A stretch of 64,000 bases of DNA from IMG/VR virus record IMGVR_UViG_3300031555_004728, positions 96,001 through 160,000 of that record. One strand, written 5' to 3'. The translations under genes and the position numbers were made by a program. Within the stretch, counting starts at the first letter, position 1, and each line of letters starts with the position of its first letter. Shown here piece by piece: positions 6,194 through 41,597 of the stretch. The stretch is from a virus. Lineage: Duplodnaviria; Caudoviricetes. Under the pieces are notes generated by a model, which was not told the DNA's origin, searched no databases, and saw only the letters and a program-made list of their open reading frames with translations.

Positions 6194-6571
6194 CTAATAT
6201 GATATGGATACAGGGAATGATGTTGCAAATCCCCAGTAACTTGATGTTGAACCTGTTCCTAATGCAACAGCATCAATATTACCATTGTAATCTATCATAA
6301 TTTGTATGTATCCACCAGATATACTACGTGCTGTACCGATTGTTACAAATCCACTAGTTGGTCTATAATTTTCCGGTAATGTTCCAAGACGTGTATATTC
6401 AGTTGAGACATTAGTAATAGTAACTGTACCTAATGAATTCCCTCTTACAAAAACAATATTTCCAAGTTTACAATATTCAACCTTATTACCTAGATTTATC
6501 CAACCCGCATATAAAGATGGGTGGAATATATTTATGTCTGCTACATTTTCTAACAGTTCTTGTTGGTTGCA
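6194..6571 (-). CDS. Cassette 1: start-less tail-fibre/RBP C-terminal-like domain
   Basis: Open frame from repeat TGC: CNQQELLENVAD...GWINLGNKVEYCKLGNIVFVRG...LGTLPENYRP...SFPVSISY*; missed by ORF track. Confidence 0.8.
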   Translation of the reverse strand, partial: CNQQELLENVADINIFHPSLYAGWINLGNKVEYCKLGNIVFVRGNSLGTVTITNVSTEYTRLGTLPENYRPTSGFVTIGTARSISGGYIQIMIDYNGNIDAVALGTGSTSSYWGFATSFPVSISY

Positions 6572-6648
6572 GTTTTGTTAAGTAAGATTTCTGTAATCAA
6601 AGGAAATTATCGATAACTAGCGAAAGTTAACTTAACAAAATTGGTTCC
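6565..6648 (-). repeat. 84-bp hairpin repeat copy 1
   Basis: GGTTGCAGTTTTGTTAAGTAAG...TTAACTTAACAAAATTGGTTCC on + strand. Confidence 0.97.
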
Positions 6649-6656
6649 TCCCCCTC

Positions 6657-6992
6657 CTATTTCCATGTTATTCTAATACCAATACCACATACATTATTTA
6701 TTATAGCTCCAGTCCCATTAGCACCATCAGTATCACAATAAATATAGAATCCACCAACTTCATCAAGTCCTATATATTTATAATCAAGTTCAACTGGACC
6801 GGATCCAGGTATATTGATTGCTACTAATTCTAAGTTAACTTCATCATGTGTAAAAGGTATTCTAATACTTGTTGAACGTATATATCCATTATAACTATGT
6901 CCAAATGCAACATAAAATCTACAATAATCTTTAGCGTCATTAGTTTTACTTATAAATGAGTCTCTATATACTTCCCAAACTTGTTGGTTGCA
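6657..6992 (-). CDS. Cassette 2: start-less beta-rich domain
   Basis: CNQQVWEVYRDSFISK...VCGIGIRITWK*; no ATG; stop lies 8 bp before repeat copy 1. Confidence 0.75.
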   Translation of the reverse strand, partial: CNQQVWEVYRDSFISKTNDAKDYCRFYVAFGHSYNGYIRSTSIRIPFTHDEVNLELVAINIPGSGPVELDYKYIGLDEVGGFYIYCDTDGANGTGAIINNVCGIGIRITWK

Positions 6993-7069
6993 GTTTTGTT
7001 AAGTAAGATTTCTGTAATCTTCGTAAATTATCGATAACTAGAGAAATTTAACTTAACAAAATTGGTTCC
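6986..7069 (-). repeat. 84-bp hairpin repeat copy 2
   Basis: Identical to copy 11. Confidence 0.97.
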
Positions 7070-11339: not shown

Positions 11340-11696
11340 TTATACACCTATAGCTTGCCATAATATACCATATCTAAATCCTATAGATTGGACTCTAACA
11401 GAAAATATCATATGTGCATTATCTAATGCAGTAATCCAAATATTTTCATTAGAAAATCCTGTTAAATTCAAAAATGATACAACAGGGGTTGTATTAAATG
11501 GTTGTTTAAAACTTATTTCAAATGGATACCATGCATGGGCATCAAGATCTGATTGTGTATTAGCTGTCCAATACACATGTCCCCTTTCTATATGAGATAT
11601 TCCGAAATTAATAACCATCTCACTTTCTAATTCACCAAATGTATAATTCCATGATATTGCATGCTCTATATCTATTAACATCTCTTCTTGGTTGCA
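11340..11696 (-). CDS. Cassette 3: H-type-lectin/gp53-like fibre tip domain
   Basis: CNQEE then MLIDIEH...FEISFKQPFNTTPVV...WQAIGV*. Confidence 0.75.
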   Translation of the reverse strand, partial: CNQEEMLIDIEHAISWNYTFGELESEMVINFGISHIERGHVYWTANTQSDLDAHAWYPFEISFKQPFNTTPVVSFLNLTGFSNENIWITALDNAHMIFSVRVQSIGFRYGILWQAIGV

Positions 11697-11773
11697 GTTT
11701 TGTTAAGTAAGATTTCTATAAACATCGGTAATTATCGATAACTAGAGAAATTTAACTTAATAAAATTGGTTCC
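11690..11773 (-). repeat. 84-bp hairpin repeat copy 3
   Basis: Consensus match with a few substitutions. Confidence 0.95.
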
Positions 11774-11796: not shown

Positions 11797-12141
11797 CTAA
11801 ATACCGAATGCATTCCATATTACTCTGTAATCAAATCCATTTGTCATAGTTCTTATAAAAAACGTCATTCCACCTCTTGAAACTGATTGCACCATTACAT
11901 TTTCATTTGAAAAATAGGAGTGTTGATTTATTGTAACACATGGAATACAGATAAAAGGTTGCTTAAATGTTATTTCAAAACCATGCCATGGATTTCCATC
12001 AACATTAGATGGTGTACAACTGACTACACCTCTTTCATAATGCCAAATACCAATATTTGTAATTTCTCCATAATCTGTTATAATTTCAGAATTATATGAT
12101 ATAGCACTCTCTATATCCAATAACATCTCTTGTTGATTGCA
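11797..12141 (-). CDS. Cassette 4: paralogue of cassette 3
   Basis: CNQQE then MLLDIES...FEITFKQPFICIPCV...WNAFGI*. Confidence 0.75.
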   Translation of the reverse strand, partial: CNQQEMLLDIESAISYNSEIITDYGEITNIGIWHYERGVVSCTPSNVDGNPWHGFEITFKQPFICIPCVTINQHSYFSNENVMVQSVSRGGMTFFIRTMTNGFDYRVIWNAFGI

Positions 12142-12218
12142 GTTTTGTTAAGTAAGATTTCTGTAAACATCGTAAATTACCGATAACTAGAGAAAGTTAA
12201 CTTAACAAAATTGGTTCC
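12135..12218 (-). repeat. 84-bp hairpin repeat copy 4
   Basis: Loop allele shared with copy 8. Confidence 0.97.
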
Positions 12219-12535: not shown

Positions 12536-12862
12536 TTATACAGAATAATCATCTTCTGTATAATACATTATAGTTGTATGAAATTCACCATATATATCAG
12601 AACCAGTATTTTTCCCATAAACAGTAATAGTATTATTTTGTACCAGTATTCTACAGTACCCACATATAATAGATCCATCATAAATAAATACAGGTTCAAA
12701 AACCATGAATTTAGGTTTATAACCATCTGGTATATCACTAAATGTAAGAGAAGATGCATTACCGATATATCTCAATTGTAATTCTACAAAATTTCCAATT
12801 CTGAAAAAATATGATGTTTGATTATTTATTAAAATTTCATGTGTATAAAGTTGTTGGTTGCA
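12536..12862 (-). CDS. Cassette 5: start-less fibre tip-like domain
   Basis: CNQQLYTHEIL...YFFRIGNFVELQLR...DIPDGYKP...YYTEDDYSV*. Confidence 0.75.
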   Translation of the reverse strand, partial: CNQQLYTHEILINNQTSYFFRIGNFVELQLRYIGNASSLTFSDIPDGYKPKFMVFEPVFIYDGSIICGYCRILVQNNTITVYGKNTGSDIYGEFHTTIMYYTEDDYSV

Positions 12863-12939
12863 GTTTTGTTAAGTAAGATTTCTGTAATCAAAGGAAATTA
12901 TCGATAACTAGAGAAATTTAACTTAACAAAATTGGTTCC
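12856..12939 (-). repeat. 84-bp hairpin repeat copy 5
   Basis: Loop allele shared with copy 1. Confidence 0.97.
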
Positions 12940-15886: not shown

Positions 15887-16183
15887 TTATCTCCAAACAA
15901 AATAAACAATACTAACATTAAAAACACCAGAATGATTAGCATCAAAATATAAATAAACTGTATTATTTTCTCCTCTTCCATCAGTTACAGTTATTCTAGG
16001 AGAAACAAGTTGAGCATGTACTGTACATACTGCTCCAGCAATCGAACGTCCTGTTAAATGTGTTATAACTTCAGGACTTTGATAGTATACTTTACCATCT
16101 GTAAAATTTATATCAGCATTTACAATAAATATATCTACATTACTTGTATTATGTAAACCTGTAATGATCTCTTCTTGGTTGCA
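15887..16183 (-). CDS. Cassette 6: start-less beta-rich domain
   Basis: CNQEEIITGLHN...VFNVSIVYFVWR*; no ATG; missed by ORF track. Confidence 0.75.
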   Translation of the reverse strand, partial: CNQEEIITGLHNTSNVDIFIVNADINFTDGKVYYQSPEVITHLTGRSIAGAVCTVHAQLVSPRITVTDGRGENNTVYLYFDANHSGVFNVSIVYFVWR

Positions 16184-16260
16184 GTTTTGTTAAGTAAGTT
16201 TTCTGTAATCTAAGGAAAATCTCGATAACTAGAGAAAGTTAACTTAACAAAATTGGTTCC
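16177..16260 (-). repeat. 84-bp hairpin repeat copy 6
   Basis: Identical to copy 18 (opposite orientation). Confidence 0.97.
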
Positions 16261-26193: not shown

Positions 26194-26562
26194 TTATTTC
26201 CACCTTCCTATTGCTAATAAACTAACGGCTAATATAACAGATTCAGTATCATCTCCACCCATTGAATTCCAGCTACCAAAATATCTTAATTCTATCATAT
26301 TAGAATAGTGAGTACAATCAGCTTGAACTAGGTCTGAATAATGCCAATCACAACTAGCACTGACTACAGGACGTGTATAAAATGTTATAGGCATTTCTAT
26401 TCTCTTACTAACTACAAACATATCAGCCCAAGCATTTACTCTATTAGATGTATCAAATTGAATATCAGATCTTGAATAGCAGTATGCTAGACCATTTTCA
26501 TATTTAACATACCCCCATTCACCATTTGTACCTTGTTCTTGATACTCTATAATTCGGTTGCA
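26194..26562 (-). CDS. Cassette 7: gp53-like tail-fibre tip domain
   Basis: CNRIIEYQEQGTNGEWGYVKYENGLAYCY...MPITFYTRPVV...AIGRWK*. Confidence 0.85.
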   Translation of the reverse strand, partial: CNRIIEYQEQGTNGEWGYVKYENGLAYCYSRSDIQFDTSNRVNAWADMFVVSKRIEMPITFYTRPVVSASCDWHYSDLVQADCTHYSNMIELRYFGSWNSMGGDDTESVILAVSLLAIGRWK

Positions 26563-26639
26563 GTTTTGTTAAGTAAGTTTTCTGTAATTCTCGTGAATTA
26601 TCGATAACTAGAGAAAGTTAACTTAACAAAATTGGTTCC
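26556..26639 (-). repeat. 84-bp hairpin repeat copy 7
   Basis: Loop allele shared with copy 17. Confidence 0.97.
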
Positions 26640-26678
26640 ACCCCTCTTATACCACCTTATCCACTCATATTTTTATCT

Positions 26679-27002
26679 TTAATAAAATGATACTAATACA
26701 GGAAACGTTCCTTCAGTAATACGTTTAAGGGTATACCTTTTTGTATTTGGGTTTATAACTATTTCTCCAACTCCACCATTATACTCTACTCTAAAAGTAT
26801 GATTAATAGTACTATCATCCATCCATCTTAAAGGTATAAATGTTGTTCCTTGATATACATCATAACCATTCCATATTCTTAGTAATGCAAAATTTGCATT
26901 ATATGGTATAGCGCCAGTAACACCAGTAGTACTAGTTGTATATACTGTCCCATCTGTTGATTTACTTATCATTAAATTAGGTATTATTTCTTGTTGGTTG
27001 CA
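26679..27002 (-). CDS. Cassette 8: beta-rich domain
   Basis: CNQQEIIPNL then MISKSTDG...VLVSFY*. Confidence 0.7.
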   Translation of the reverse strand, partial: CNQQEIIPNLMISKSTDGTVYTTSTTGVTGAIPYNANFALLRIWNGYDVYQGTTFIPLRWMDDSTINHTFRVEYNGGVGEIVINPNTKRYTLKRITEGTFPVLVSFY

Positions 27003-27079
27003 GTTTTGTTAAGTAAGATTTCTGTAAACATCGTAAATTACCGATAACTAGAGAAAGTTAACTTAACAAAATTGGTTCA
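26996..27079 (-). repeat. 84-bp hairpin repeat copy 8
   Basis: Loop allele shared with copy 4. Confidence 0.97.
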
Positions 27080-27156
27080 CCCTCCCCTACTCCAACTCAC
27101 TCTATAAATTTATATAAAAGTATCTAGTAGAAATTAATCTACTAGATACTTAAATT

Positions 27157-28110
27157 TTAAGGTTTTACTAATGCACCTTGCTTAGCAAGTTTTACTAACT
27201 TGAGATTCTGAGGACCAGAACCTGTATAATTTGAAATTCCATTTGCTACAGCAATTGGTTTTCTGTTAGCAGGTTTTCCACGATATTTAGCTGGAACTTT
27301 AATAGCTTCAAGAACTTCATCCAACTTAGTTGAACCACCTGTATATTTAGAATAGTATTTTGTTGTAGAAGCTGGTTTTGTTGTAGTTGTAACACCACTT
27401 AATTTATTAACCATAGCTCTAACTTCTTGATATGGATATGGGCATCCATGTGATTTTAATGATGCTTCTCTCACATCATGTCCATTTCCATGATCTCCTA
27501 CTTTAACCTCATTAGCCCAATCTTCTAATGATTTTTCAGGCTCTGGAGTAGCAAGTGGTGCAGATACTGAAGGGGCTTCAGTAACTACTTGGTTTTGAAC
27601 TGAGATTCCAAAGCATTCCAAAATACCTTTAGCAATATCTTCCATTCTTGTATTAAAGATATTTACATCTTCTGCATTTGAAATGAATCCAATTTCAATA
27701 AGTCTGTAGTTATATCCTTTTTCAGCAGCTCTCTTTGGATTTGCTAAATTAGTTCTACCAACTATTGTATTACTACGTCCTGGAAGAATTCCTGATAAAA
27801 ATGCAGCTAATTTCTTGTCATATTCATCGGCTTCATAATTACCCCAAATAATAACATGGGCACCACGAGCACTTGATCTTGGATTTGAATCCATATGGAG
27901 TTCACAAAGTAACCAATCTTTAGATAAATTCAATTTTGTGATACCGTTATCTTTATAATAGTTTCTATCTTCTTCTGAGATCATTACTTGGTCACCACCA
28001 AGTGTTTTAAGTACTTTGGCTAAAGTACGAACTCTTTCATACTCTTGATAACCATTTCCACAAGCACCTGGATCACCAGCACCATGACCTGTAATAAAGA
28101 ATACACCCAT
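27157..28110 (-). CDS. N-acetylmuramoyl-L-alanine amidase (Amidase_3) with C-terminal wall-binding region
   Basis: N-terminal ~170 aa nearly the same as 17333 lysin; different C-terminus. Confidence 0.9.
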   Translation of the reverse strand: MGVFFITGHGAGDPGACGNGYQEYERVRTLAKVLKTLGGDQVMISEEDRNYYKDNGITKLNLSKDWLLCELHMDSNPRSSARGAHVIIWGNYEADEYDKKLAAFLSGILPGRSNTIVGRTNLANPKRAAEKGYNYRLIEIGFISNAEDVNIFNTRMEDIAKGILECFGISVQNQVVTEAPSVSAPLATPEPEKSLEDWANEVKVGDHGNGHDVREASLKSHGCPYPYQEVRAMVNKLSGVTTTTKPASTTKYYSKYTGGSTKLDEVLEAIKVPAKYRGKPANRKPIAVANGISNYTGSGPQNLKLVKLAKQGALVKP

Positions 28111-28174
28111 TGTATTTTCCTCCTTTATTCATAATGGTTATATTTCTGTTTCCTATATGAATAAATAAAGGTTA

Positions 28175-28546
28175 TTATTGAGATATAAAGCCCATTATCA
28201 TAATTCTAGCTTGAAACGAATCAGAATCTTTCCATAATCTTCCATAATTTATATAAAATAAATCACCATCAACCCAAGAATTAATTGCCATAATACCATT
28301 ACTTGCAGAACTAGATATTGATACATGATTTGCATTAAATGGCAATTCATATGTGAAAGTACCACTTGCATACCAACCTCTAGCTTGAGTATCGAATGCA
28401 ACATTTGTATATGATTCAAACCTTATAGCTATAAAAAAATTATTAGAAAATTTCATTATATACCAATCAGAAACTATAGTCCCATTGAATATATCTTCTG
28501 TTATGTATATTTTAGAAAGAGTATTCCACATATCTTGCTGATTGCA
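28175..28546 (-). CDS. Cassette 9: gp53-like fibre tip domain
   Basis: CNQQD then MWNTLSK...WYIMKFSNNFF...YELPF...IMIMGFISQ*. Confidence 0.75.
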   Translation of the reverse strand, partial: CNQQDMWNTLSKIYITEDIFNGTIVSDWYIMKFSNNFFIAIRFESYTNVAFDTQARGWYASGTFTYELPFNANHVSISSSASNGIMAINSWVDGDLFYINYGRLWKDSDSFQARIMIMGFISQ

Positions 28547-28623
28547 GTTTTGTTAAGTAAGGTTTCTGTAATCCTCGTGAATTATCGAAAGATAGAGAAA
28601 GTTAACTTAACAAAATTGGTTCC
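28540..28623 (-). repeat. 84-bp hairpin repeat copy 9
   Basis: Loop allele shared with copy 13. Confidence 0.97.
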
Positions 28624-28675
28624 CCCCCAACTCTCCAAATATACTATCTCAGATTTTATATATTATTTTTACATA

Positions 28676-28972
28676 TTAAATATAATATGTAAAATCAAAA
28701 CATACAAAAGTAACTACACCAGGAAATCTAAATTGTAATGTATCACCATCATTAGGTATAAATGCTATCCCTGAATACTGAAATATTTCAAATGTCTGGT
28801 CTATTCCGACACATGAACCAGCAAAAATTGCCTTTGATGTTTTATAAGGTAAAGTTATGGCAGCCTTAGAGTTATTTATTGGATAGTGTCCAAATATATG
28901 GACTAAATTTTTATCTTTTGTATATCTGATGTAACCGCCAGAACCATATAAATATTCTAAATTATGGTTGCA
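28676..28972 (-). CDS. Cassette 10: start-less fibre tip-like domain
   Basis: CNHNLEYLYGSGGYIRYTKDKNLVHIFG...ITLPY...FDFTYYI*; no ATG; missed by ORF track. Confidence 0.75.
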   Translation of the reverse strand, partial: CNHNLEYLYGSGGYIRYTKDKNLVHIFGHYPINNSKAAITLPYKTSKAIFAGSCVGIDQTFEIFQYSGIAFIPNDGDTLQFRFPGVVTFVCFDFTYYI

Positions 28973-29049
28973 GTTTTGTTAAGTAAGATTTCTGTAATCA
29001 AAGGAAATTATCGATAGATAGAGAAAGTTAACTTAACAAAATTGGTTCC
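28966..29049 (-). repeat. 84-bp hairpin repeat copy 10
   Basis: Consensus match. Confidence 0.97.
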
Positions 29050-29170
29050 CCCCCCCAATCTACCATATCAAGAACTCTAATTTAAATTTATAAAAAGAAC
29101 TGATTTTTAAAGCACATTATTTTAAGATTTCAATCGACAAACTTTATTTTTTAGAAAGGATTAATGTGCT

Positions 29171-29359
29171 ATGAGTAATGAAAGATATACAGGTCCATCT
29201 CAATTTTATTTAGAAGTATTATTAGATCCAGATAGGGTTAATCATAAATCTAAAATAAACCATTTTGATAGGAAACCTTATCATACAATGAGTGGACGAA
29301 ATTTAATGAAAGTTTATAAAAAGGAGGTTGACAAAAATGATAGAAAGAATCAAACATAG
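29171..29359 (+). CDS. Small hypothetical protein
   Basis: 62 aa, AAAGGA SD. Confidence 0.55.
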   Translation: MSNERYTGPSQFYLEVLLDPDRVNHKSKINHFDRKPYHTMSGRNLMKVYKKEVDKNDRKNQT

Positions 29360-30272
29360 TGATTTTGTTAGATATTTAGAAAAATTATATCTAGAAGAAC
29401 CAGTATATATCTGGGGTGGTAATGGTAATCTTATAACAAAACAATTAGTAGATGATTTGATTAAAAAATACAGTTCGGAAACTTTTAATGACAAATACTA
29501 TTATAATAAACTAGCAACTAGTAAGGGTAAATTTGGATATGACGCACCAGGATTATTAAATTACATAACTGGTGAAGATAAAACAGTACTTCAATATTTT
29601 CACTCATGTATTGTTAAACGTCATATAGGTTCTATACCAGATGATAAAGTTTGTCTTGTATTTAATAAAACATTAACTCATGTTGGTATTTACTTAGGTA
29701 ATGGATATACAATTGAAATGAAAGATTCTAAAACTAATATGATGAAAGAAAGTTTTAGAATCAATAGATGGACTTATTTTGGAATGCCTGATTTTATTGA
29801 TTATGAAGAAAATATCAGTAAAATAAACTTTGCTAAATATGACAGAGTTATAAAAAATTACCAAGAATTTTTAAATACGGAAATAGATTATGTCAAAACT
29901 CCAATAACAGGGGAATTTGATTTGACTACAAAAGAAAACTCTATTAGATTATTACAGAAAGTATTCAGTAATAACTATGGATGTGTAATAAATGAAACAG
30001 GTGTTTTTGATTTATCAACAAAGAAAAATTGTCCTAACCATAAATTACTACTTAGTGATAAGAATGCATTGAGAAAGGTCATTTATGCTATAAATACTCT
30101 TTTATATTCATCAATAGATTATAAAATGGCAGATGCATTAGAAGGTGATGTATTTGATAAAAGGTATACTCCATTTTTGAAAGGTGTGCTAGCACAATAT
30201 CAATCAATACAAAGAGGATTAGAGGTTAATGGAGAAATAACACCAGAAACACTTTATTCATTATTTAAATAA
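29337..30272 (+). CDS. NlpC/P60-like protein with peptidoglycan-binding-like C-terminus, catalytic Cys apparently absent
   Basis: YIWGG...YDAPGL (canonical DCSGL)...HVGIYLGNGYTIE; C-terminal YQSIQRGLEVNGEITPET. Confidence 0.7.
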   Translation: MIERIKHSDFVRYLEKLYLEEPVYIWGGNGNLITKQLVDDLIKKYSSETFNDKYYYNKLATSKGKFGYDAPGLLNYITGEDKTVLQYFHSCIVKRHIGSIPDDKVCLVFNKTLTHVGIYLGNGYTIEMKDSKTNMMKESFRINRWTYFGMPDFIDYEENISKINFAKYDRVIKNYQEFLNTEIDYVKTPITGEFDLTTKENSIRLLQKVFSNNYGCVINETGVFDLSTKKNCPNHKLLLSDKNALRKVIYAINTLLYSSIDYKMADALEGDVFDKRYTPFLKGVLAQYQSIQRGLEVNGEITPETLYSLFK

Positions 30273-30333
30273 AGAAATTAAAACTAGAACTATTAATTTA
30301 GTTCTAGTTTTATATTTTTTAAACAATTATGTT

Positions 30334-30563
30334 AAGTGATTAGAAAGCTGCAACTAAATTAAAATACTTTTTGACATTCGGTAATTAAACTTTTGCTGGT
30401 TTAAGAAGTTTAATGATGGTGAGTTATAATACTGCCAATGTGTAATAGTTGTTTGTTCACGTCCATGGACTATTACTGTTATAACTTATCACACCTCCAT
30501 AAGAGTAAAATTTATTAGTATAAGATCGTTTAAAATACCAGTATTTTAATTTACTAATCACTT
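30334..30563 (+). ncRNA. Candidate structured non-coding RNA (family unknown)
   Basis: ORF-free gap with nested inverted repeats AAGTGATTAG/CTAATCACTT, AAATTAAAATACT/AGTATTTTAATTT, ATTAAACTT/AAGTTTAAT, AGTTATAA/TTATAACT, GTAATAGT/ACTATTAC. Confidence 0.5.
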
Positions 30564-30574
30564 GGGGCAAATAA

Positions 30575-30609
30575 ATACTTCCATACTGAAAATATCAGTA
30601 TGGAAGTAT
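30575..30609. terminator. Intrinsic terminator
   Basis: ATACTTCCATACTGA-N5-TCAGTATGGAAGTAT. Confidence 0.75.
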
Positions 30610-30616
30610 ACTTTGT

Positions 30617-33193
30617 TTAATTATATAAAATTTCTATATAATTTGATCTCTTATGATCATCTGGTTTTTGATTAATAACAGATATTACATCTACAGGATA
30701 CATTGAAAACATGTTATTATGTGAAATAACAAATACTTGTTCACCATTAATCATCTCAATCAATTTTTCAAGTATTGATATAAATTTACCTCTATTAGAT
30801 TCATCAAGTACAGAATCTAACTCATCTAAAAGCATAATATTATATCTACTCATACTTTCAAATGAAATTGCAAATGATAATGCAATTGAAAAGAATGATC
30901 TTTCACCTTGTGATGCATATCTTATATCAGATATTCTATTTCCATCTTTATTAAATGGAATAGTAAAACTATCTGCACCAATATCAAAATCTTCTATAAA
31001 TATTTTACCATCATATATTTTATCAAGTAAATCATTTACTACAGACTTTGCTTTCTTTAAATATAAGTCTATAAATATTAATGGAATACCCGTATTTGAT
31101 GATAATGATGATTTTAATATAGTCCAATCATCAAAGAATTTTTGATATACTTTTAATTCTTTTGAATACTGCTTAACTTGCTCTATATTATGTGATAAAG
31201 TTGAAATTACAGTTTGAATACGTTTCTTATCATTTTGATATGATGTTAACATAGTCTCTTGTTTATACTTATCTTCAAGTAATTTAGTCTTTAATTCTAA
31301 TTGAGATTTGGAAGTTCTATAGATTTCTTCAAGTTCTTCTTTCTTTTCTACTATCTCAATCAATGAAGTTACTTCATCACGTTCGGCAGTATCTTTTCGT
31401 ATTTTAATTTCTAATGAATGAATTTCTTCTTTAGTATCAGAAAACTTATCAAGATATTCTTTTAAAGTTTTTTCTGAATCTTTAAGATGATTTTCTAAAA
31501 TTAATAATGGCGAGTTCATTATTAAAGTATCAAGTTCTTTCTTTTTATCTTCTAGAGTCTTTTTATCAGATAAATAATTTTCATATTCTGTTATAAATGC
31601 TAACTCGTCAAAGAAAACTTTTCTATCATAAATCCATTCATTTTCTTTAATTTTTTGAAGTATAGTTTCAGTTTTTAACTGAATCTTAAGTGTATCAGGT
31701 AATTTTTCAAATAAAGATTTTTTATCTGAAAATGATAATAATACACTTTTTATATTATTATAAGCAAGTAGCATATATGAATAAAAATCTTTATTCGGTT
31801 TATCATGATCTTTAACCATATCTTTAGATAAATCATTTAATGTATTCCAAAGTTCTATAAATGAACAACTACTAGGACATCCTTTTGGAACTTTTGGAGA
31901 AAATTGTGAAATTATTCTATTAATTAAAGACCTTCCACTTTCAATCTCTTCTTCTGCTACAGCTTTTTTAATCTTACTCTCAATATATGATTTAACATCA
32001 TCACCTTTTAACATAAGTTCAATAACTTTTCTTATAGGTTCAGAACCAAATTCATATGTTGTATTAAGAATTTCCTGTTTTTCTTTTAAGAAAGATAATG
32101 AATCTTCAATATCTTTCTTAGTATAATTAATTTCACCAAACATATTCTCTCTATTTTTTATAGAAATTTCTAATGATGAAATTATACCTTTCAACCCATC
32201 AATATCAGATTGGGAAATTATATTTCTTAATTTAGTATTAGTTAAATCTATTTCTGTTCTAGATTTATCTATGGTTTCTAAATATACTGATAATGAAGAC
32301 TGAAGACTTTTTTGTCGTTCGTCACTTGTAATTATCGATGTATTAAGTATCTTTTCCCTTTCCTGAAGAGTTTTTAAACTTAAACTATCTCCTATAGAAC
32401 CCTTCATAAGTTTAGATAATTTCTTTTCAGATTCTTTCATTTTAAGTGAAACATCTTCTGGTATTTGTGATAACTGAAATGATGTTTTTCCTATACTATC
32501 AGAAATAGATATAATTGATTTTTCTATATCATCTAATTCTTCTATTCTAGTTTTAAGAATAGCCATAGATTCTTCTATATCTTCTATTTCAGTTTTCTTT
32601 ATTTTATCCATAACCATGGATATCATAGTTTTAAGAGCATTAAGCTCTGAATTTATTTTTTTAAAATAAACTAAATATACATTAACTTCCTCAAGTCTTT
32701 TAGACATGAATGTCTTTCGTTCAGCACTTTTAAGTTCAATCATATTTATTACGTTATTTCCTAAACGAATTAATTTCATGTAATCTTGTTCCATATCTAG
32801 TTCATTTTTTACAACTTCTTTGAATGATGTCACATTTCCATTAGGATTTAATTCATCACCATTCTTTTTAATATATGATTTCACAGTATGTGAAGTTTTA
32901 CTCGGTGTATAAAAATGCTCTATTTCATATTCATTTCCACCATCCAAAATTACTACTTTTTTATACCCTTTTTTATCTTTCATAATAAGTGGAAGAGCAT
33001 CTCGTTCGTCTAAAGTTCCTAATGTAGCAAATGGATTTAACTGTGATAATAAAACAGTTTTTCCATGCCCATTAGGTCCAGTTATTAAACAAATTTTGTT
33101 TTTTGTGTTTCGTAAATCTAATCTTATATAAGGTGTATGCATTGCAACATTAACACCTTCAAAGTTTTCAAGTATTAATTCACAAATTTTCAT
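30617..33193 (-). CDS. sbcC: SbcC/Rad50-like SMC-family ATPase
   Basis: Walker A GPNGHGKT, coiled coil with central CPSSC, signature ASQGE, Walker B LLDELDSVLD, VISH. Confidence 0.85.
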   Translation of the reverse strand: MKICELILENFEGVNVAMHTPYIRLDLRNTKNKICLITGPNGHGKTVLLSQLNPFATLGTLDERDALPLIMKDKKGYKKVVILDGGNEYEIEHFYTPSKTSHTVKSYIKKNGDELNPNGNVTSFKEVVKNELDMEQDYMKLIRLGNNVINMIELKSAERKTFMSKRLEEVNVYLVYFKKINSELNALKTMISMVMDKIKKTEIEDIEESMAILKTRIEELDDIEKSIISISDSIGKTSFQLSQIPEDVSLKMKESEKKLSKLMKGSIGDSLSLKTLQEREKILNTSIITSDERQKSLQSSLSVYLETIDKSRTEIDLTNTKLRNIISQSDIDGLKGIISSLEISIKNRENMFGEINYTKKDIEDSLSFLKEKQEILNTTYEFGSEPIRKVIELMLKGDDVKSYIESKIKKAVAEEEIESGRSLINRIISQFSPKVPKGCPSSCSFIELWNTLNDLSKDMVKDHDKPNKDFYSYMLLAYNNIKSVLLSFSDKKSLFEKLPDTLKIQLKTETILQKIKENEWIYDRKVFFDELAFITEYENYLSDKKTLEDKKKELDTLIMNSPLLILENHLKDSEKTLKEYLDKFSDTKEEIHSLEIKIRKDTAERDEVTSLIEIVEKKEELEEIYRTSKSQLELKTKLLEDKYKQETMLTSYQNDKKRIQTVISTLSHNIEQVKQYSKELKVYQKFFDDWTILKSSLSSNTGIPLIFIDLYLKKAKSVVNDLLDKIYDGKIFIEDFDIGADSFTIPFNKDGNRISDIRYASQGERSFFSIALSFAISFESMSRYNIMLLDELDSVLDESNRGKFISILEKLIEMINGEQVFVISHNNMFSMYPVDVISVINQKPDDHKRSNYIEILYN

Positions 33194-33271
33194 ATATAAA
33201 ATCCTTTCTCGTATTAAAAATTTGTAAAAGAAAAAATAATAAGGTATACTTAAAAAGTATACCTTATTAAA

Positions 33272-34231
33272 TTAATCTACGCAACTCATAAGAAGTTTAA
33301 ATTCTTCATCTGTAATAAAACTTTGAACTGATGATTCAAAAATTTTAAGTAAATCTTTACATCCATAATCTTCATTTGAATATAATTCGGATACAAATGC
33401 TTCAGAGATTTCACCATTTGTTACTGATTCATAAATTGCAGTATCAATGACATCTCCAAGTTCTTCAATAAAACTACAAATATCTGATTCAACAACAAAT
33501 TTCTTTTGTTGCATTTTATTTGAAATTTTATCAATAGTTTTCTCTTCATTTAAATCCGATTTTGCCCATGTATCCAAAGTTCTAATTACTTTACCAGATA
33601 CTTCATTATAAACTTCTTGTGCTTCTTTTCCTGTTATTTTTTTAGCAATAATATCTGAAACTTTCTTTGCTAAAATAGGTCCTAATAAAATACCATCAAC
33701 TAATGCTTTACTTGCATGTTTATTATTTGTAACTTTGGAACCATATGCTATCATGGTTTTAAGAGCCCAATCTAATGGACCAACAGCAATAACAGAAGAT
33801 GCAGCAATTTCACCAGTCATAACTTTTTGTTTAACTTTAAGAAGTTTTTCTTTGTGCTCTTCAAGTTTAACTTTAAGCTCATCTGGTTTATTTTTGTATT
33901 TCTTAATAATTTCTGACTTTTCTTTTGCTGTAGCAACTTTAGCAATAGCACTAGATGAAGCATCCATAGCACCTACAAGTGCTGCTGAAGGTACAGATGC
34001 TATTTTTTTAGCAACTTTAACTACACCAGAATCTTTTTTATTATCATCTAATTTTTTAGGTTCTTCTTTTTTATCAGAATCCTTATCCATATTATCATAT
34101 TTATTCTTAATAGAACGAGCTGCATCAACAGTTTTTAGACCTAAACGTCCAATAGTTCCTTTAGCACTCTCTTCTAAGACCATCTCTTTATAATTTCCAG
34201 CAATTTCTAATAATTCGTCAAAAGTAGCCAT
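33272..34231 (-). CDS. Hypothetical virion protein with ES motifs
   Basis: 319 aa, AAAGGA SD, late motif at 34257. Confidence 0.75.
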   Translation of the reverse strand: MATFDELLEIAGNYKEMVLEESAKGTIGRLGLKTVDAARSIKNKYDNMDKDSDKKEEPKKLDDNKKDSGVVKVAKKIASVPSAALVGAMDASSSAIAKVATAKEKSEIIKKYKNKPDELKVKLEEHKEKLLKVKQKVMTGEIAASSVIAVGPLDWALKTMIAYGSKVTNNKHASKALVDGILLGPILAKKVSDIIAKKITGKEAQEVYNEVSGKVIRTLDTWAKSDLNEEKTIDKISNKMQQKKFVVESDICSFIEELGDVIDTAIYESVTNGEISEAFVSELYSNEDYGCKDLLKIFESSVQSFITDEEFKLLMSCVD

Positions 34232-34290
34232 AATAAAAATTCCTTTCTTTTAATATTAAAAAATTGTTTTTATTATAACTAAAACCTAGA

Positions 34291-34596
34291 TTATAGTTTT
34301 ATATATAAAATATATAAACAGATCTGATCATTTTGATGTGGTGTTCCATTAAAATTTGATGACCAATGTCTTAATGATATTACAGCAACTTCATTTTCAG
34401 GATAATCTGTATAAATATACATTCTTGGAGATACTACATATGTTGTAAACATGTTGTATCCTATAATACCAAGTGCCCTATATCCAGATATCCCTATAGA
34501 ATAGTCAAATTCAATAACAGAATTTGTATATGATGATGGTAGAGGAACAAAAACTTTTCTCACTTCAATATTAGTTAATAATTTTTGTTGGTTGCA
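34291..34596 (-). CDS. Cassette 11: beta-rich domain
   Basis: CNQQKLLTNIEVRKVFV...GYRALGIIG...LYILYIKL*. Confidence 0.75.
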   Translation of the reverse strand, partial: CNQQKLLTNIEVRKVFVPLPSSYTNSVIEFDYSIGISGYRALGIIGYNMFTTYVVSPRMYIYTDYPENEVAVISLRHWSSNFNGTPHQNDQICLYILYIKL

Positions 34597-34673
34597 GTTT
34601 TGTTAAGTAAGATTTCTGTAATCTTCGTAAATTATCGATAACTAGAGAAATTTAACTTAACAAAATTGGTTCC
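34590..34673 (-). repeat. 84-bp hairpin repeat copy 11
   Basis: Identical to copy 2. Confidence 0.97.
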
Positions 34674-34760
34674 ACCAATCCCTCTTCTTCCCTACATATT
34701 TATATCCTCTCTAAATATATACCAAAAACATTTTTTTAATTATATAGAAGGTGATAATTT

Positions 34761-35147
34761 ATGATAACAAATATTTCAAATATTTATAAAATAAAAGATA
34801 ATGAACCAGCATTTATATGTGAAACTTTAGGTCTTTGTAAAGCAGGAGAAAAATATCCACTTCATATACCACAATTAATGCCAAAAATAGATTTCAGAAG
34901 ACCTAAAATAGAAGTAGTTAGATCTAGAGGAACTCTCTGTTTTAAAAATAGTTCTAAATGTAGAGTATTAACTGCATCAGTTATAAAAACTCAAAACTAT
35001 TTAAATATTCCATTTGAACGAAATAAATCATGGGATTCTCAATATGATATTGATGATGCTGGAAATAAATTTATTAGAAAAGGGACTAAAGTTATTTGTA
35101 AATGTCCTACATCATCCATTAAGGATATGACATTTTCAAATGATTAA
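34761..35147 (+). CDS. Hypothetical protein, probably baseplate-associated
   Basis: 128 aa, AAGGTG SD, late motif, co-transcribed with next gene. Confidence 0.65.
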   Translation: MITNISNIYKIKDNEPAFICETLGLCKAGEKYPLHIPQLMPKIDFRRPKIEVVRSRGTLCFKNSSKCRVLTASVIKTQNYLNIPFERNKSWDSQYDIDDAGNKFIRKGTKVICKCPTSSIKDMTFSND

Positions 35148-35161
35148 GGTGGTGATTTTAA

Positions 35162-35578
35162 ATGACTAAAAATTATGATACAATAGAAAACCAAGTTAAT
35201 AGTGAGAGTAAAGATGATCTTGGATATAGGGAGTATATAAGTAAACTTAGTATAACTGATGAAAGGTCTGGAGATACAATAGTTATTCCATATGAAAATA
35301 TAATCAATACTTATAGAGATTATTTAAAAGATTATGTTGTTGAAGAGGAATTGAATGATGAGATGTATATGAAATATAAACAAAATCCTCAAACTATTTC
35401 TGAAGCATTATATGGAACTATACATTTATGGCATACCATTTTGGAATTAAATGGATGTATTAGTAGATTAGATTTAGTTGGTAAGAAGATTAAGTATTAT
35501 AATCCTACAGTTATAGAAACTCTTCTTAATGAGGTTTTGTTAAAACATGATCAAGTAAATTCAATAAATATCTATTAA
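35162..35578 (+). CDS. Baseplate wedge protein, T4 gp53/LysM-like
   Basis: PQTISEALYGTIHLWHTILELNG matches the PDxIAxxxYGxxxxWWxILxxN pattern. Confidence 0.65.
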   Translation: MTKNYDTIENQVNSESKDDLGYREYISKLSITDERSGDTIVIPYENIINTYRDYLKDYVVEEELNDEMYMKYKQNPQTISEALYGTIHLWHTILELNGCISRLDLVGKKIKYYNPTVIETLLNEVLLKHDQVNSINIY

Positions 35579-35615
35579 TAAAAGGATATCTGGATTTCCA
35601 GATATCCTTTTATTT

Positions 35616-35975
35616 TTATTTTATCCCAGCAACTGTAACCCAATAAGGTTGAGAAGTCCCCTCTGCTGGTAAATTATACATCCGTATATCAATCTGTGTA
35701 TCAGATATTGCATGAATATCTGCATATGCAGGTGGATTTAAAAATGAATATATTAATCTAGTTTTACTACCTTCAGAATTAATGCTATTATAAAATAAAG
35801 ACATTTCTAACATCATTGAATCTAATATGATATTAGCACTTGCTAAATATAAATGAACATATTTAAATTCCGAAAATTTCATTCCATTAATCAATGTTAA
35901 TTGACCAGAATATGAACCGTTAGCTGATGCAGTAGCAATAATTATTCTATTCTTTAACATCTCTTGTTGGTTGCA
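35616..35975 (-). CDS. Cassette 12: beta-rich domain
   Basis: CNQQE then MLKNRII...KFSEFKYV...VTVAGIK*. Confidence 0.75.
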   Translation of the reverse strand, partial: CNQQEMLKNRIIIATASANGSYSGQLTLINGMKFSEFKYVHLYLASANIILDSMMLEMSLFYNSINSEGSKTRLIYSFLNPPAYADIHAISDTQIDIRMYNLPAEGTSQPYWVTVAGIK

Positions 35976-36052
35976 GTTTTGTTAAGTAAGTTTTCTGTAA
36001 TTCTCGTAAATTACCAATAGATAGAGAAAGTTAACTTAACAAAATTGGTTCC
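35969..36052 (-). repeat. 84-bp hairpin repeat copy 12
   Basis: Identical to copy 14. Confidence 0.97.
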
Positions 36053-36061
36053 CCTCCCAAA

Positions 36062-36493
36062 TTATAAATCTTTTATTTTTATAACTTCAGCATATGTTCC
36101 TGCAATACCATCATTAACTGTAAATGCTTGAATTGTGTAAACTCCAAATTGCATTCCCTTTGTACATCTAACAAGTGCAATCATATCTGTAGTTGTATGA
36201 GTTCCATATTCAATATCATTTCCTATATAACTAGCAGAACCGTATTCATGTAATATAAACCATGATCTTTTCTCAGTTGTACTAGAAGTAGAACCTAGTA
36301 TATGTATATGTATTATAGCTAACATATCTTGTTGAATATTGATATAACCACCTCTATCAAATGTAGCTATTTCAGAATCTATAAGGCTTTCATCAGTATC
36401 ATCTTGAAAGAATGAAACATATTTTGAAGATGCTAATGAGTATGTATTTTTGGTATAACCAATTGAACTTTTAAACATTTCTTGTTGGTTGCA
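36062..36493 (-). CDS. Cassette 13: beta-sandwich (C1q/BclA-like?) domain
   Basis: CNQQE then MFKSSIG...GTYAEVIKIKDL*. Confidence 0.7.
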   Translation of the reverse strand, partial: CNQQEMFKSSIGYTKNTYSLASSKYVSFFQDDTDESLIDSEIATFDRGGYINIQQDMLAIIHIHILGSTSSTTEKRSWFILHEYGSASYIGNDIEYGTHTTTDMIALVRCTKGMQFGVYTIQAFTVNDGIAGTYAEVIKIKDL

Positions 36494-36570
36494 GTTTTGT
36501 TAAGTAAGGTTTCTGTAATCCTCGTGAATTATCGAAAGATAGAGAAAGTTAACTTAACAAAATTGGTTCC
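36487..36570 (-). repeat. 84-bp hairpin repeat copy 13
   Basis: Loop allele shared with copy 9. Confidence 0.97.
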
Positions 36571-36785
36571 CCCTCCCCCTCCAATACTATTAAAAATGAA
36601 AAGGTTTGAGTAGTCCATAAAAATGGACTACTCAATATTACTAATGACTAAGAGAACGTCAGTACATAAGAACTGACTCTGGTATATTAAACCAAGTAGT
36701 TTACTTCTAACTACTTACTATAAAGTTTAATAAATATAAAAATAAAAGATAAGAGATTTTCTCTTATCTTTTATTTTTTATCTTA

Positions 36786-38330
36786 TTAATTCATTGCATA
36801 TTCTTTAGCAATTCTTTCAACATCCATTGTGTTAAAACTTTCAAGATATAATGCTTTTGAAATATTGAGAAGTGTATACTCAGTAATAGCATTGTCAAAT
36901 GCTGCTTCTTTTACTTCTTTATTTTCATACTTAGCAATTAATGATTTAATAATATCAACAACACCAACTACATAAGTAATTGCTGCTGAATAATAGTACA
37001 AATCTGCTACATAATATTCAAGTGCAATTTCATATACCTTGATAACATCTTTAGGATTATCACATTTGTTAGCCTTAGTTGAAACATATGTAGATGCTTT
37101 ATTTACATATGATTTAACATCAGGATTTTCGAAAAATGAATCTAATGCCGAAACTGCTTTATTCATTTCTGAAATAGCATCTTCAAGTTTGTATACTTTT
37201 GAGTTTGATTTACATTCAAACATTTCTTTTTTCTTAGATTCCATCATTCCTTTTACAGATGCTCTATAATCTTCAACTTCTTTCTTAACAGAATCAAGAT
37301 CATTTGGAGCTTTTACTGTAAGTTCTCCTGTTACAACAGGACTCTTTAAGATATCCTTAGCCATTTTACTAAGTTTCTTAATATTAATAGGAACAATTTT
37401 ACTTCTATACTCACTATAAATTGCTTTGTACATTCCTTCTATACTTGCAATAAATGTAGGATGAGATTTTGAAATTGTTACTTTAGCATCAGATTCTGCT
37501 TTAGCTTTAAAAGATGCTTTGATTTTGTCAATAACACCTTCAGTCACATATTCAGGAATATTAAATTCCGTTTCACCTATTTTAGAATCTGCTGATTCCA
37601 TAGCATTAAATTTGCTAATCATTACTCCTTCAAATAATGAAGGTGTATAAATAGAAGTTGTTTTTCCTACTTCTCTTTCTTTTAATGCTTCCATAAGTGC
37701 AGACTCTGTAGTTATTGATTCATCATTTGTAAGTTCTTCTTCTAAAGCGAGTCTATCTTCTTTTTCTTTTTTTGCAAGTTCAACTTCTGTAATAGCAGTA
37801 TCTCTTACATTATCTTTGATAACATCAGCCAAATCATCAAGATGGTTATCACGAATAACAGCTGATAATTTATCTGTAATTTCTGGTGTCATCTTGAAAT
37901 CATAATCTTCTTCTGTAATAGATTCTGGATTTAATGTTTTCTCCATATATTCACCATTTACGATTTTTTGAACTGATTCGTATACATTCTTGATTACTGA
38001 TGTATTTTTAGGGTTCTTTCTGATAGCTTCTTTTACATAGAATTCTAATCCTTTTCCACAAGATCTTCTTGCGATATAATCTGAAACAAATTTATCTAAA
38101 TCAGGAGTATCTGCTACTCTACCGTTTACTTCAGGAATTGCATTCATACAGATCTTTGAAAGAATGTGATTCATGCAAGTATCAACACCCTTTTGTTTTG
38201 TCTCATTTAAACGACGCAATTTGATAGTTGGATCATTATTGATACTATCGTATGCATTGTCAAGAGAGCGTTGTTTATTAACTTCATCAATGAAGTTAAT
38301 TACTGTATTTTTTCCATCTAAAGGATTCAT
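36786..38330 (-). CDS. Hypothetical virion protein with ES motifs
   Basis: 514 aa, AAAGGA SD, late motif at 38360. Confidence 0.75.
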   Translation of the reverse strand: MNPLDGKNTVINFIDEVNKQRSLDNAYDSINNDPTIKLRRLNETKQKGVDTCMNHILSKICMNAIPEVNGRVADTPDLDKFVSDYIARRSCGKGLEFYVKEAIRKNPKNTSVIKNVYESVQKIVNGEYMEKTLNPESITEEDYDFKMTPEITDKLSAVIRDNHLDDLADVIKDNVRDTAITEVELAKKEKEDRLALEEELTNDESITTESALMEALKEREVGKTTSIYTPSLFEGVMISKFNAMESADSKIGETEFNIPEYVTEGVIDKIKASFKAKAESDAKVTISKSHPTFIASIEGMYKAIYSEYRSKIVPINIKKLSKMAKDILKSPVVTGELTVKAPNDLDSVKKEVEDYRASVKGMMESKKKEMFECKSNSKVYKLEDAISEMNKAVSALDSFFENPDVKSYVNKASTYVSTKANKCDNPKDVIKVYEIALEYYVADLYYYSAAITYVVGVVDIIKSLIAKYENKEVKEAAFDNAITEYTLLNISKALYLESFNTMDVERIAKEYAMN

Positions 38331-38420
38331 ATCTTTTTACATCCTTTCTTTAATAGTTTTAGTATAATGTTTTTAGTTGATAATATTATGTCAATAACTA
38401 TTAAAGATATTTATTTAAAA

Positions 38421-38756
38421 TTATGACTTTCCAATTATTAATACTGCTATCGATAAAATATGTCCACTTACAAGTCCACCATCTGGATAATTAGCTAATA
38501 AACGCAATCTTTTATTTGATGGTTCTGGTGCAGATGATAGAGTTATAGTATTTGTACAAGGAGTTTGACTAACATGATTTACTGTAAGATGTATAGTACA
38601 TTTTGCATATAAACCACTATCAAAAAATCCTGCTGGTAATAATTCACCTTCAGTAATATAAGTTTCTAATAAATTATTTGATGAGTAGTACATAGTTATA
38701 TTAAATGAACTAATTATTTTATATTTAAAATAATCTTCTTTTTCTTCTTGGTTGCA
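38421..38756 (-). CDS. Cassette 14: beta-rich domain
   Basis: CNQEEKEDYFKYKII...IAVLIIGKS*. Confidence 0.75.
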   Translation of the reverse strand, partial: CNQEEKEDYFKYKIISSFNITMYYSSNNLLETYITEGELLPAGFFDSGLYAKCTIHLTVNHVSQTPCTNTITLSSAPEPSNKRLRLLANYPDGGLVSGHILSIAVLIIGKS

Positions 38757-38833
38757 GTTTTGTTAAGTAAGTTTTCTGTAATTCTCGTAAATTACCAATA
38801 GATAGAGAAAGTTAACTTAACAAAATTGGTTCC
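38750..38833 (-). repeat. 84-bp hairpin repeat copy 14
   Basis: Identical to copy 12. Confidence 0.97.
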
Positions 38834-38837
38834 CCCC

Positions 38838-39128: not shown

Positions 39129-39205
39129 GTTTTGTTAAGTAAGATTTCTGTAATTCTCGTAAATTATCGATAACTAGAGAAATTTAACTTAACAAAATTG
39201 GTTCC
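39122..39205 (-). repeat. 84-bp hairpin repeat copy 15
   Basis: Consensus match. Confidence 0.97.
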
Positions 39206-39288
39206 CCTACCCAGTCTGCTATAATAATAATTCCATATAATTTAGTACTGAAAACAATTTATTAATCGGATATTAGCGAGGTGAAAAT

Positions 39289-41502: not shown

Positions 41503-41597
41503 TCATAAATAATTGTAACTAGGTTTATAAATTATAAAACTTCCTATAAAATAAGCCAGAAAACAAATTATTAACGTAAATAGAAAGGATTGAAACT

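Follow-up and report, generated by a model that had tools for sequence, protein, structure and literature searches.

An 84-nucleotide (nt) repeat in the genome of an uncultured gut jumbo bacteriophage (phage) stands directly before genes that lack start codons, and we tentatively propose that it is a new, multi-copy translational bypass leader placed in front of genes for putative receptor-binding tips. The stretch analysed here (the window) comprises 64,000 nt, bases 96001–160000 of the 275,512-bp virus record IMGVR_UViG_3300031555_004728, which has direct terminal repeats and a G+C content of 28.5%; the focal copy of the repeat lies at 6565–6648. The repeat forms a conserved hairpin, the open reading frames (ORFs) behind it lie in one fixed frame and miss start codons, a stop codon follows directly after the first of two matched codons, and this codon pair co-varies between two phage lineages. 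Read as a leader, the element would be a portable translational unit with a 63-nt untranslated gap. To our knowledge, ribosomes that hop over tens of nucleotides in a programmed way have been described in the phage T4 gene 60 family, in one yeast mitochondrial lineage and, as a candidate, in a Streptomyces phage. Here, two uncultured gut jumbo phages carry 35 and 18 near-identical candidate sites, in which the natural co-variation of the codon pair makes the bypass idea directly testable.

An 84-nt hairpin in two phage lineages

The 84-nt repeat is real. With at most one mismatch allowed, the window contains 44 matches to its 11-nt core, where 7.1 would be expected and none of 100 shuffles gave more than 14. 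These matches correspond to 19 complete 84-nt copies, of which 17 share one orientation and two are reversed (59057 and 59550). The whole 275,512-bp record holds 35 full copies plus one remnant that retains the 5′ arm only. Copies stand singly, in pairs or in triples between unrelated genes, among them those for DNA polymerase, endolysin, an SbcC-like protein and virion or structural proteins. A first-pass annotation of the window, made from the letters alone, had described the sequence at 6565–6648, and our re-reading of the plus strand agrees with it. Its statements that the length is fixed and that substitutions cluster centrally extend to the whole phage: all 35 copies measure 84 nt, with insertions or deletions in 0/35, and the variable columns are mainly 32–53 together with 23 and 62, with minor changes at 1, 13, 28, 56, 83 and 84.

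The 20 sequencing runs listed as carrying the phage all consist of contigs guessed to be DNA and come from animal gut or faeces. Judged by DNA polymerase, the cultured phages closest to it are the Bacillus jumbo phages AR9 and PBS1, with an identity of only 29%. A search with a neighbouring virion (structural) protein found two related phages, at 75% and 69% identity. The 75% relative (a 278,849-bp record, hereafter the relative) carries 18 copies of a diverged element in two subtypes, and the 69% relative has no element by pattern or k-mer count. A degenerate pattern of the arms, run over viral contigs, returned only these two lineages among the matches listed, and a nucleotide search with 801 bases against 50,697 phage records gave no match. 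Rfam models, which the first-pass annotation had suggested consulting, produced 0 matches at the gathering threshold across the window and, at E values up to 10, only sub-threshold hairpins resembling microRNA precursors. The repeat is not a known RNA family, an attC site or a member of the gene 60 family.

Covariation supports the hairpin that had been proposed at first pass. In an alignment of the 19 window copies with 16 copies from the relative, 81.3% of cells pair in the register (i, 85−i), and sliding the partner by 1–3 columns leaves only 27–46% of cells paired. An alignment of the elements of the two phages spans 95 columns and needs no gaps. The pair 12–73 covaries (UA in 19 sequences, AU in 16), G13 pairs with C72 and T10 with A75, and codon 12–14 faces 71–73. 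The stem consists of 14 bp, an internal loop, a further 5–12 bp of upper stem and a variable tip.

For the comparisons that follow, every copy was oriented to read GGAACCAATTTTGTTAAGT...ACTTAACAAAACTGCAACC, and frame f3 starts at position 3. The sense of copy 1 is the minus strand, and element position p corresponds to window coordinate 6649−p. The features of copy 1 are as follows.

6565–6648, minus strand: copy 1, the focal copy; its ORF spans 6197–6577
6649–6656, minus strand: G-rich tract resembling a Shine–Dalgarno (SD) sequence, abutting the 5′ end of the element (in the sense direction ...GGAGGGGGA, followed across the boundary by GG)
6635–6637, minus strand: proposed take-off codon TGT, positions 12–14, f3; TGT in 34/35 copies and TAT in 1; AGT in 18/18 copies of the relative
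6632–6634, minus strand: stop codon TAA directly after the proposed take-off codon, positions 15–17; 35/35 copies, and 18/18 in the relative
6578–6580, minus strand: last in-frame stop of the gap, TAA, positions 69–71, codon 19 from take-off; 35/35 copies, and 16/16 intact copies in the relative
6569–6571, minus strand: proposed landing codon TGC, positions 78–80, 66 nt after take-off; T78, G79 and C80 each in 35/35 copies; AGT in the relative
6197–6568, minus strand: start-less cassette ORF after the proposed landing codon

ORFs without start codons follow the repeat in one frame

The first-pass annotation had tied the repeat to cassettes and placed its ends in the cassette frame, and both points are borne out. 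Frame f3 is closed by TAA at positions 69–71 in 35/35 copies and then stays open for 85–271 codons; the other two frames close within 0–27 codons. Within the first 20 codons after the TGC at position 78, no ATG, GTG or TTG occurs in 22 of the 35 ORFs, and four ORFs have none anywhere. ATG stands 5 codons after TGC in 6/35 ORFs and TTG in one, and the focal ORF has its first ATG, GTG or TTG 91 codons in. Upstream of the 35 copies no one frame tends to be open more than the others, and none of the copies is entered by a long ORF. An alternative genetic code was considered and dropped: among 151 long ORFs of the phage TAA terminates 128 and TGA 3, so TAA is a stop. ARAGORN scans of the window and the genome found no transfer RNA (tRNA) or transfer-messenger RNA, leaving this 275-kb jumbo phage with no tRNA gene.

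Because the ORFs are open in one fixed frame in 35/35 copies here and in 16/16 intact copies of the relative, in genomes of 28–33% G+C, they are not decaying. Strain differences in two cassettes (8 synonymous, 11 non-synonymous) include more synonymous changes than random change would give, in small numbers.

By their profile matches, the cassette ORFs resemble the C-terminal tips of tail fibres. PHROG matches were obtained for 8 of the 20 ORFs scanned, 6 of them to families labelled tail, tail fibre or minor tail, and these matches fall mostly at the C-terminal end of much longer profiles (592–699/700, 788–1039/1096 and 1005–1149/1150). The focal cassette has weak PHROG matches, on C-terminal parts of minor tail protein families. 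Among the same number of ORFs Pfam gave a single pass, to Gp10_C, the other 19 having no match above the cut-off. The tail-fibre homology can precede the first start codon: in copy 7, residues 11–124 match phrog_2712 and the first start is at residue 47. By blastp the cassette ORFs form clusters of 6, 6, 2 and 2, with 19 singletons. An AlphaFold2 model of one cassette, built on a 5-sequence alignment, reached a mean predicted local distance difference test (pLDDT) score of 46.7, too low for use in a structure search.

Such genes fare poorly in annotation. In a public protein collection, a single cassette ORF is represented, and only by a 75-residue stub called from an internal ATG; a homologue search with one cassette returned only two small proteins, both N-terminally truncated calls. 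Standard gene callers miss or shorten all of these cassette genes, which leaves many likely receptor-binding proteins invisible in annotations of such phages.

A matched codon pair co-varies between the lineages

In this phage f3 reads AAC CAA TTT TGT TAA at the 5′ end of the element, has its last stop at codon 19 and continues CAA AAC TGC, so that TGC comes three codons after the last in-frame stop. The equivalent frame of the relative reads ACG GAA TTT AGT TAA, has its last stop at codon 19 after AGT and continues CTA AAT AGT. In the 16 intact copies of the relative this second AGT lies at codon 22, 66 nt downstream of the first, and is followed by 92 to more than 190 open codons. The codons that flank the gap are read by one tRNA in each lineage: Cys TGT/TGC here (34/35) and Ser AGT/AGT in the relative (16/16 intact). 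Among codons in the long ORFs of this phage, the shares of TGY and AGY are 1.1% and 1.9%, respectively, so that the probability of a second codon match at a predetermined place is about 0.02. In the hairpin, positions 12 and 78 are not paired with each other, the partner of 12 being 73.

The two remaining copies of the relative are a truncated one and one with a 1-nt insertion before the landing codon. In the latter the frame is closed after 7 codons, as expected under bypassing. Whereas the element itself is conserved between the two phages, blastp finds no match between their cassettes; many of the ORFs in the relative begin with motifs typical of the distal parts of tail fibres. Apart from the copies themselves, there is no long ORF with TGY-TAA-GT at its end and no long gene that contains a copy of the element's 3′ end. 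We also looked for an expression site or a shaft gene ending in the take-off site, to which cassettes might be joined by hopping or recombination in trans, and found none.

A proposed model for ribosome bypass

Matched codons, a stop directly after the first of them and a conserved hairpin together make up a bypass signature, as in T4 gene 60. We infer from it the hop itself, the role of the G-rich tract and the site at which translation starts. The SD-like tract at the 5′ edge of the element (G at positions −2, −1, +1 and +2 in 27, 26, 28 and 35 of 35 copies) would hold the ribosome, which would reach TGT (Cys, positions 12–14) in the 5′ arm of the hairpin with TAA directly next. Rather than terminating, the peptidyl-tRNA would leave TGT, the hairpin would be passed over and the tRNA would re-pair with TGC (78–80) at the 3′ foot, from where decoding would continue into the cassette ORF. 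The anti-SD sequence of the ribosome might stay paired to the G tract while the hairpin refolds, and refolding would bring TGC to roughly the distance from the SD that TGT had occupied; this could compensate for features that other bypass systems possess and the present one lacks.

The closest parallel is the group of MobA-associated cassettes formed by T4 gene 60 and its homologues. Shared with it are a codon pair of one tRNA, a stop directly after take-off, a take-off codon within a conserved stem–loop, in-frame stops in the gap and a gap located in a repeated or mobile phage module. The differences are considerable: the codon starts are 66 nt apart here and 50 nt in gene 60, one hairpin covers the whole gap, there is no mini-SD before landing and an SD-like tract stands 9 nt before the take-off codon instead, and the element sits at the very 5′ end of its genes rather than inside a topoisomerase gene. 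The element also has 35 and 18 copies per genome and no sequence similarity to the gene 60 cassette.

Other parallels are looser. Like the byp elements of Magnusiomyces mitochondria, the repeat supplies many short untranslated inserts per genome with matched flanking codons and hairpin potential; unlike byps, which lie inside conserved mitochondrial genes and vary in length and sequence, it keeps one length and occupies the 5′ start of cargo genes that vary. As in the split ribosome-binding sites of T4 genes 38 and 25, a hairpin lies between the SD and the first codon and would bring both close; in those genes, however, the hairpin is small and a normal AUG comes after it, whereas no start codon follows the hairpin here. 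The byp elements are named in one account (PMC11194080). Full-text literature searches turned up no report of multi-copy bypass elements, either in jumbo phages or in tail-fibre genes.

Several observations weigh against bypassing. According to one survey (bioRxiv 10.1101/2022.08.31.505936), gene 60 homologues conserve take-off and landing codons that are identical or are wobble variants of one tRNA (GAU/GAC, GGU/GGC), a stop or rare codon after take-off and a take-off stem–loop, as well as nascent-peptide residues and, in most cassettes, a mini-SD 5–7 nt before the landing codon. No SD-like triplet stands 5–7 nt before the landing codon in our element: positions 66–77 read ACTTAACAAAAC here and ATTTAGCTAAAT in the relative, and both are free of GAG, GGG, GGA and AGG. 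A kinetic study of gene 60 (PMC11194080) states that, during sliding, the peptidyl-tRNA is held by contacts that the nascent peptide makes in the exit tunnel, and that processivity drops sharply once a gap is longer than 56 nt. The gap here is 63 nt, beyond that 56-nt limit, and the leader, at only a few codons, provides no long nascent peptide of the kind on which gene 60 relies. Moreover, the codon-pair evidence comes from two lineages only, and the copies within each genome are homogenised, giving an effective n of 2.

The start site adds to these difficulties. The distance from the end of an SD-like tetramer to ATG was measured in 151 long ordinary ORFs: of the 110 that have such a tetramer, 80 have it at 7–10 nt, and the commonest value is 8 nt. 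With this usual spacing, the G tract points to element positions 10–14. The open f3 stretch upstream of the element is 1–32 codons long. An ATG, GTG or TTG is found in f3 between the nearest upstream stop and the element in 17/35 copies, a further 8/35 have only ATT, ATA, ATC or CTG there, and 10/35 have none. Nor does f3 stand out in this phage for starts within 5 codons (11, vs 14 and 10 in the other frames). The relative shows a weak excess, with upstream starts in f3 in 13 of 18 copies vs 6 and 9. A TTG at positions 11–13, in frame f2, lies 8 nt from the SD-like tract, which is the modal spacing. Exact removal of the hairpin at 14–71 (58 nt) would put this TTG in frame too, next to the f3 codon CAA at position 72, so a route without a hop fits this phage as well. 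As a general start, the TTG at 11–13 is rejected since the relative has TAG there. A hop of the initiator tRNA from TTG 11–13 to CTG 77–79 is likewise rejected; it lands in f2, which closes within 0–25 codons. The ATT at 8–10, also in f2, is invariant in both lineages. With these points set against the codon pair, the stop and the hairpin, we regard bypassing as a serious possibility and the best account that the sequences offer, held with less than firm confidence.

Could the hairpin be removed instead?

The start-codon problem left by the hop would be solved if the hairpin were taken out of the message, by cutting and rejoining of the RNA, or looped out by the initiating ribosome, with no re-pairing of a tRNA. 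A start in the 5′ arm (ATT 8–10 in both lineages, TTG 11–13 in this phage) would then be joined to f3 codons behind the 3′ arm, giving Met-Asn-Cys-Asn-Gln... where ATT is joined to position 75 or Met-Gln-Asn-Cys-Asn... where TTG is joined to 72. The geometry suits this idea: the G tract ends at position 2, which places TTG 11–13 at the modal 8-nt spacing of ordinary genes; the register (i, 85−i), kept in both lineages, means that symmetric removal at any f2 codon boundary lands in f3; and the possible start ATT 8–10 does not vary in either lineage.

Other evidence tells against removal. The relative has TAG in place of TTG, leaving ATT, a poor start codon, as the only one common to both lineages, and removal gives no reason for the matched pairs TGT/TGC and AGT/AGT. 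The phage has no RtcB, Rnl2-type RNA ligase or RNase III at E ≤ 0.001, no ribozyme or intron family of Rfam matches, and the stem has no bulge–helix–bulge motif. A gapped-pattern scan for joints lacking the hairpin returned 13 viral and at least 120 metagenome stretches, all unrelated by context. In four runs compared with window positions 26401–46400, the joints listed included none of 58, 64, 66 or 78 nt; these runs hold DNA-type contigs, which end at repeats. On balance we think it unlikely that the hairpin is removed or looped out.

A possible role for the hairpin in DNA recombination

The element could also act primarily in DNA recombination, as a site, in folded or duplex form, at which an Xer-like tyrosine recombinase excises, inserts and shuffles cassettes of element plus tip ORF. 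The system would then work like an integron or shufflon while being a member of neither, with the translational features secondary or the cassettes silent donors. The phage does encode a tyrosine recombinase of 341 amino acids (record 202143–203168), which scores 238.8 bits against a cut-off of 220 with NF040815 (XerA-type). It is the only recombinase found in the genome, which has no serine recombinase, Y1 HUH transposase or reverse transcriptase at E ≤ 0.001. The recombinase is present in both element-bearing genomes and absent from the 69% relative, which lacks the element; 3/3 genomes thus agree, a co-occurrence that may simply reflect relatedness. Apart from this question, the Xer-like recombinase stands in a phage that is otherwise lytic-looking.

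Several further traits speak of exchange. Cassettes occur single, paired or triple among unrelated genes, and their cargo is wholly different between the lineages. Orthologous loci of near-identical strains have identical flanks and a differing element centre (the central 26 nt), which suggests frequent conversion between copies, and in one strain 367 other letters replace a cassette together with its element. The differences in the centre were seen at the record loci 29.5, 50.7, 51.1 and 66.6 kb. Inversion of the centre was considered and dropped: among 17 central variants no pair is closer in reverse complement than forward. In its lower stem, internal loop, upper stem and variable tip, the element recalls folded attC and CTX attP sites.

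The first-pass annotation had gone further and inferred, from attC-like boxes and the better folding of the antisense strand, a recombination or processing site that acts as a folded single strand. Its observation that the antisense strand folds better stands for this phage, in which the mean RNA minimum free energy over 29 distinct sequences is −24.3 kcal/mol for antisense vs −18.3 for sense and antisense is the better folder in 16/16 distinct window copies. It does not hold as a general rule, since in the relative the sense strand folds better in 15/15 (−35.1 vs −25.0). A lack of consistent strand bias had been named beforehand as grounds for refuting a folded antisense site, and that reading is weakened by it. 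The heptamers GTTAAGT and ACTTAAC do fit GTTRRRY/RYYYAAC by inspection, as had been noted. The outer boxes of attC are ordered RYYYAAC ... GTTRRRY; here the order is inverted, both strands reading GTTAAGT ... ACTTAAC. The direct repeat AACCAA, described as two copies 78 nt apart in the ORF frame, is confirmed at element positions 3–8 and 81–86 in this phage and is absent from the relative. Taken together, strand bias, box order, the position of the ORF and the enzymes found (a recombinase of another class and no Y1 HUH enzyme) remove the main support for the attC-like interpretation.

The integron comparison therefore covers only some traits. Shared with attC are an imperfect inverted repeat with conserved arms and a variable centre, promoter-less cassettes, GTTRRRY/RYYYAAC-like heptamers and, in the genome, an Xer/IntI-related tyrosine recombinase. 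An attC site, however, follows its ORF in an array beside intI and attI, whereas this element precedes its ORF in a fixed frame in 35/35 copies and no array lies by the recombinase, and the favoured folding strand is inconsistent between lineages. The recombinase scores far below the integron-integrase models (TIGR02249, 91.9 vs 265 bits; NF011946, 52.4 vs 435 bits) and its gene adjoins no cassette, the nearest copies lying at 195.1 and 209.1 kb, about 6–7 kb off. An Xer/dif site has a 28–31-bp core in which two 11-bp arms surround a 6–8-bp spacer. Inspection of the alignment shows no evident dif-like core of 28–31 bp with a 6–8-bp spacer, and the folded stem (14 bp, internal loop, 5–12 bp) could, to judge from its layout, mimic one.

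Invertible tail-fibre segments and shufflons (Mu Gin, P1 Cin, p15B Min, R64 Rci) likewise hold start-less C-terminal receptor-binding segments in frame with a repeat. Unlike them, the present system has in-frame stops within the repeat and lacks a constant N-terminal gene beside the segments, which are scattered over 190 kb in the same orientation as their neighbours; a search for a serine invertase found none. Recombination alone also leaves the expression of start-less ORFs unexplained, and there is no expression site, as no long ORF runs into any copy. For these reasons recombination as the primary role of the element seems to us improbable, at about the level of hairpin removal.

A role in cassette exchange is plausible and would be compatible with bypassing, and the same hairpin may also be a DNA-level site of such exchange. 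A full dual function, in which the element serves as DNA as the site of an Xer-like recombinase for receptor-binding tip cassettes and as RNA as the gap jumped by the ribosome, with the upstream SD-like tract anchoring the ribosome while the hairpin refolds, is a combination that we consider more doubtful still. Were it true, a recombination site with stops would be kept inside 35 expressed genes, perhaps setting the amount of each alternative adhesin, and no bypass system before it would have started from a leader of just a few codons or been employed across the genome of a virus. More generally, a hairpin that also served in recombination would tie recoding to the exchange of cassettes that determine host range.

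Could the hairpin be an ordinary regulatory signal?

Least probable in our view is that the hairpin is an ordinary regulatory signal (a site for RNase III or other processing, a translational repressor or part of a late promoter) in front of ORFs that use rare non-canonical starts or decay as pseudogenes. A long conserved hairpin between an SD-like tract and a coding sequence would fit such a signal, as would the ATG (6/35 ORFs) or TTG (one) found 5 codons after TGC. The AR9 late-promoter consensus is given as AACA-N6-T[A/G] (PMC5449584), and its core AACA occurs at positions 70–73 and 85–88 in every copy (in copy 1, window 6576–6579 and 6561–6564, minus strand). The relative's element is without AACA at those places, and f3 has no near-cognate start between the last stop and the variable part. 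The one fixed open frame in 35/35 and 16/16 ORFs speaks against decay, as does the excess over the random synonymous share in the two cassettes that differ between strains, small as those numbers are.

Further copies and minor observations

The remaining full copies in the window, each with its ORF, are listed here.

6986–7069, minus strand: copy 2; ORF 6660–6998, with no ATG, GTG or TTG at all
11690–11773, minus strand: copy 3, the sole copy with TAT for TGT; ORF 11343–11702, with ATG 5 codons after TGC
12135–12218, minus strand: copy 4; ORF 11800–12147
12856–12939, minus strand: copy 5; ORF 12539–12868
16177–16260, minus strand: copy 6; ORF 15890–16189, with no ATG, GTG or TTG at all
26556–26639, minus strand: copy 7; ORF 26197–26568, residues 11–124 matching 592–699/700 of the tail fibre family phrog_2712 (E 1e-9), first start 47 codons in
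26996–27079, minus strand: copy 8, beginning TGAACC, which gives GTG just before AAC in f3; ORF 26682–27008
28540–28623, minus strand: copy 9; ORF 28178–28552
28966–29049, minus strand: copy 10; ORF 28679–28978, with no ATG, GTG or TTG at all
34590–34673, minus strand: copy 11; ORF 34294–34602
35969–36052, minus strand: copy 12; ORF 35619–35981; sequencing run X13 has 367 other letters for 35633–36058
36487–36570, minus strand: copy 13; ORF 36065–36499
38750–38833, minus strand: copy 14; ORF 38424–38762
39122–39205, minus strand: copy 15; ORF 38841–39134
46750–46833, minus strand: copy 16; ORF 46388–46762
47220–47303, minus strand: copy 17; ORF 46864–47232
59057–59140, plus strand (sense): copy 18; ORF 59128–59499
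59550–59633, plus strand (sense): copy 19; ORF 59621–59989

A (TA)n run of about 26 bases at window 46834–46862 lies directly upstream, in the sense direction, of copy 16. The remnant, at 185924–186007 of the phage record and outside the window, follows a terminator-like hairpin behind a cassette. It consists of the first 19 bases of the element only, and behind these come a second TTGTTAAGTAAAAT motif and a stretch rich in A and T; the site may represent either the decay of a former copy or a region resembling a promoter. Window 30617–33193 (minus strand) encodes an SbcC-like subunit of a palindrome-specific nuclease (phrog_77, E 2e-47), in a genome that has 35 long palindromic elements.

Two repeats of other kinds were also seen. 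The 69% relative has, at about 33.7–44.2 kb, four copies of a perfect 44-nt palindrome beside poly-C/G runs, unrelated in sequence to the 84-nt element; the flanking sequences recur in varied combinations, and the region looks like a small invertible or shuffling one. Finally, 14 unrelated metagenome loci of 30–36% G+C, which match the gapped pattern by chance, carry a unit of three repeats of about 25 nt, each beginning (A)GGGGACCAA; these units often form inverted pairs a few kb apart and look like the ends of mobile elements.

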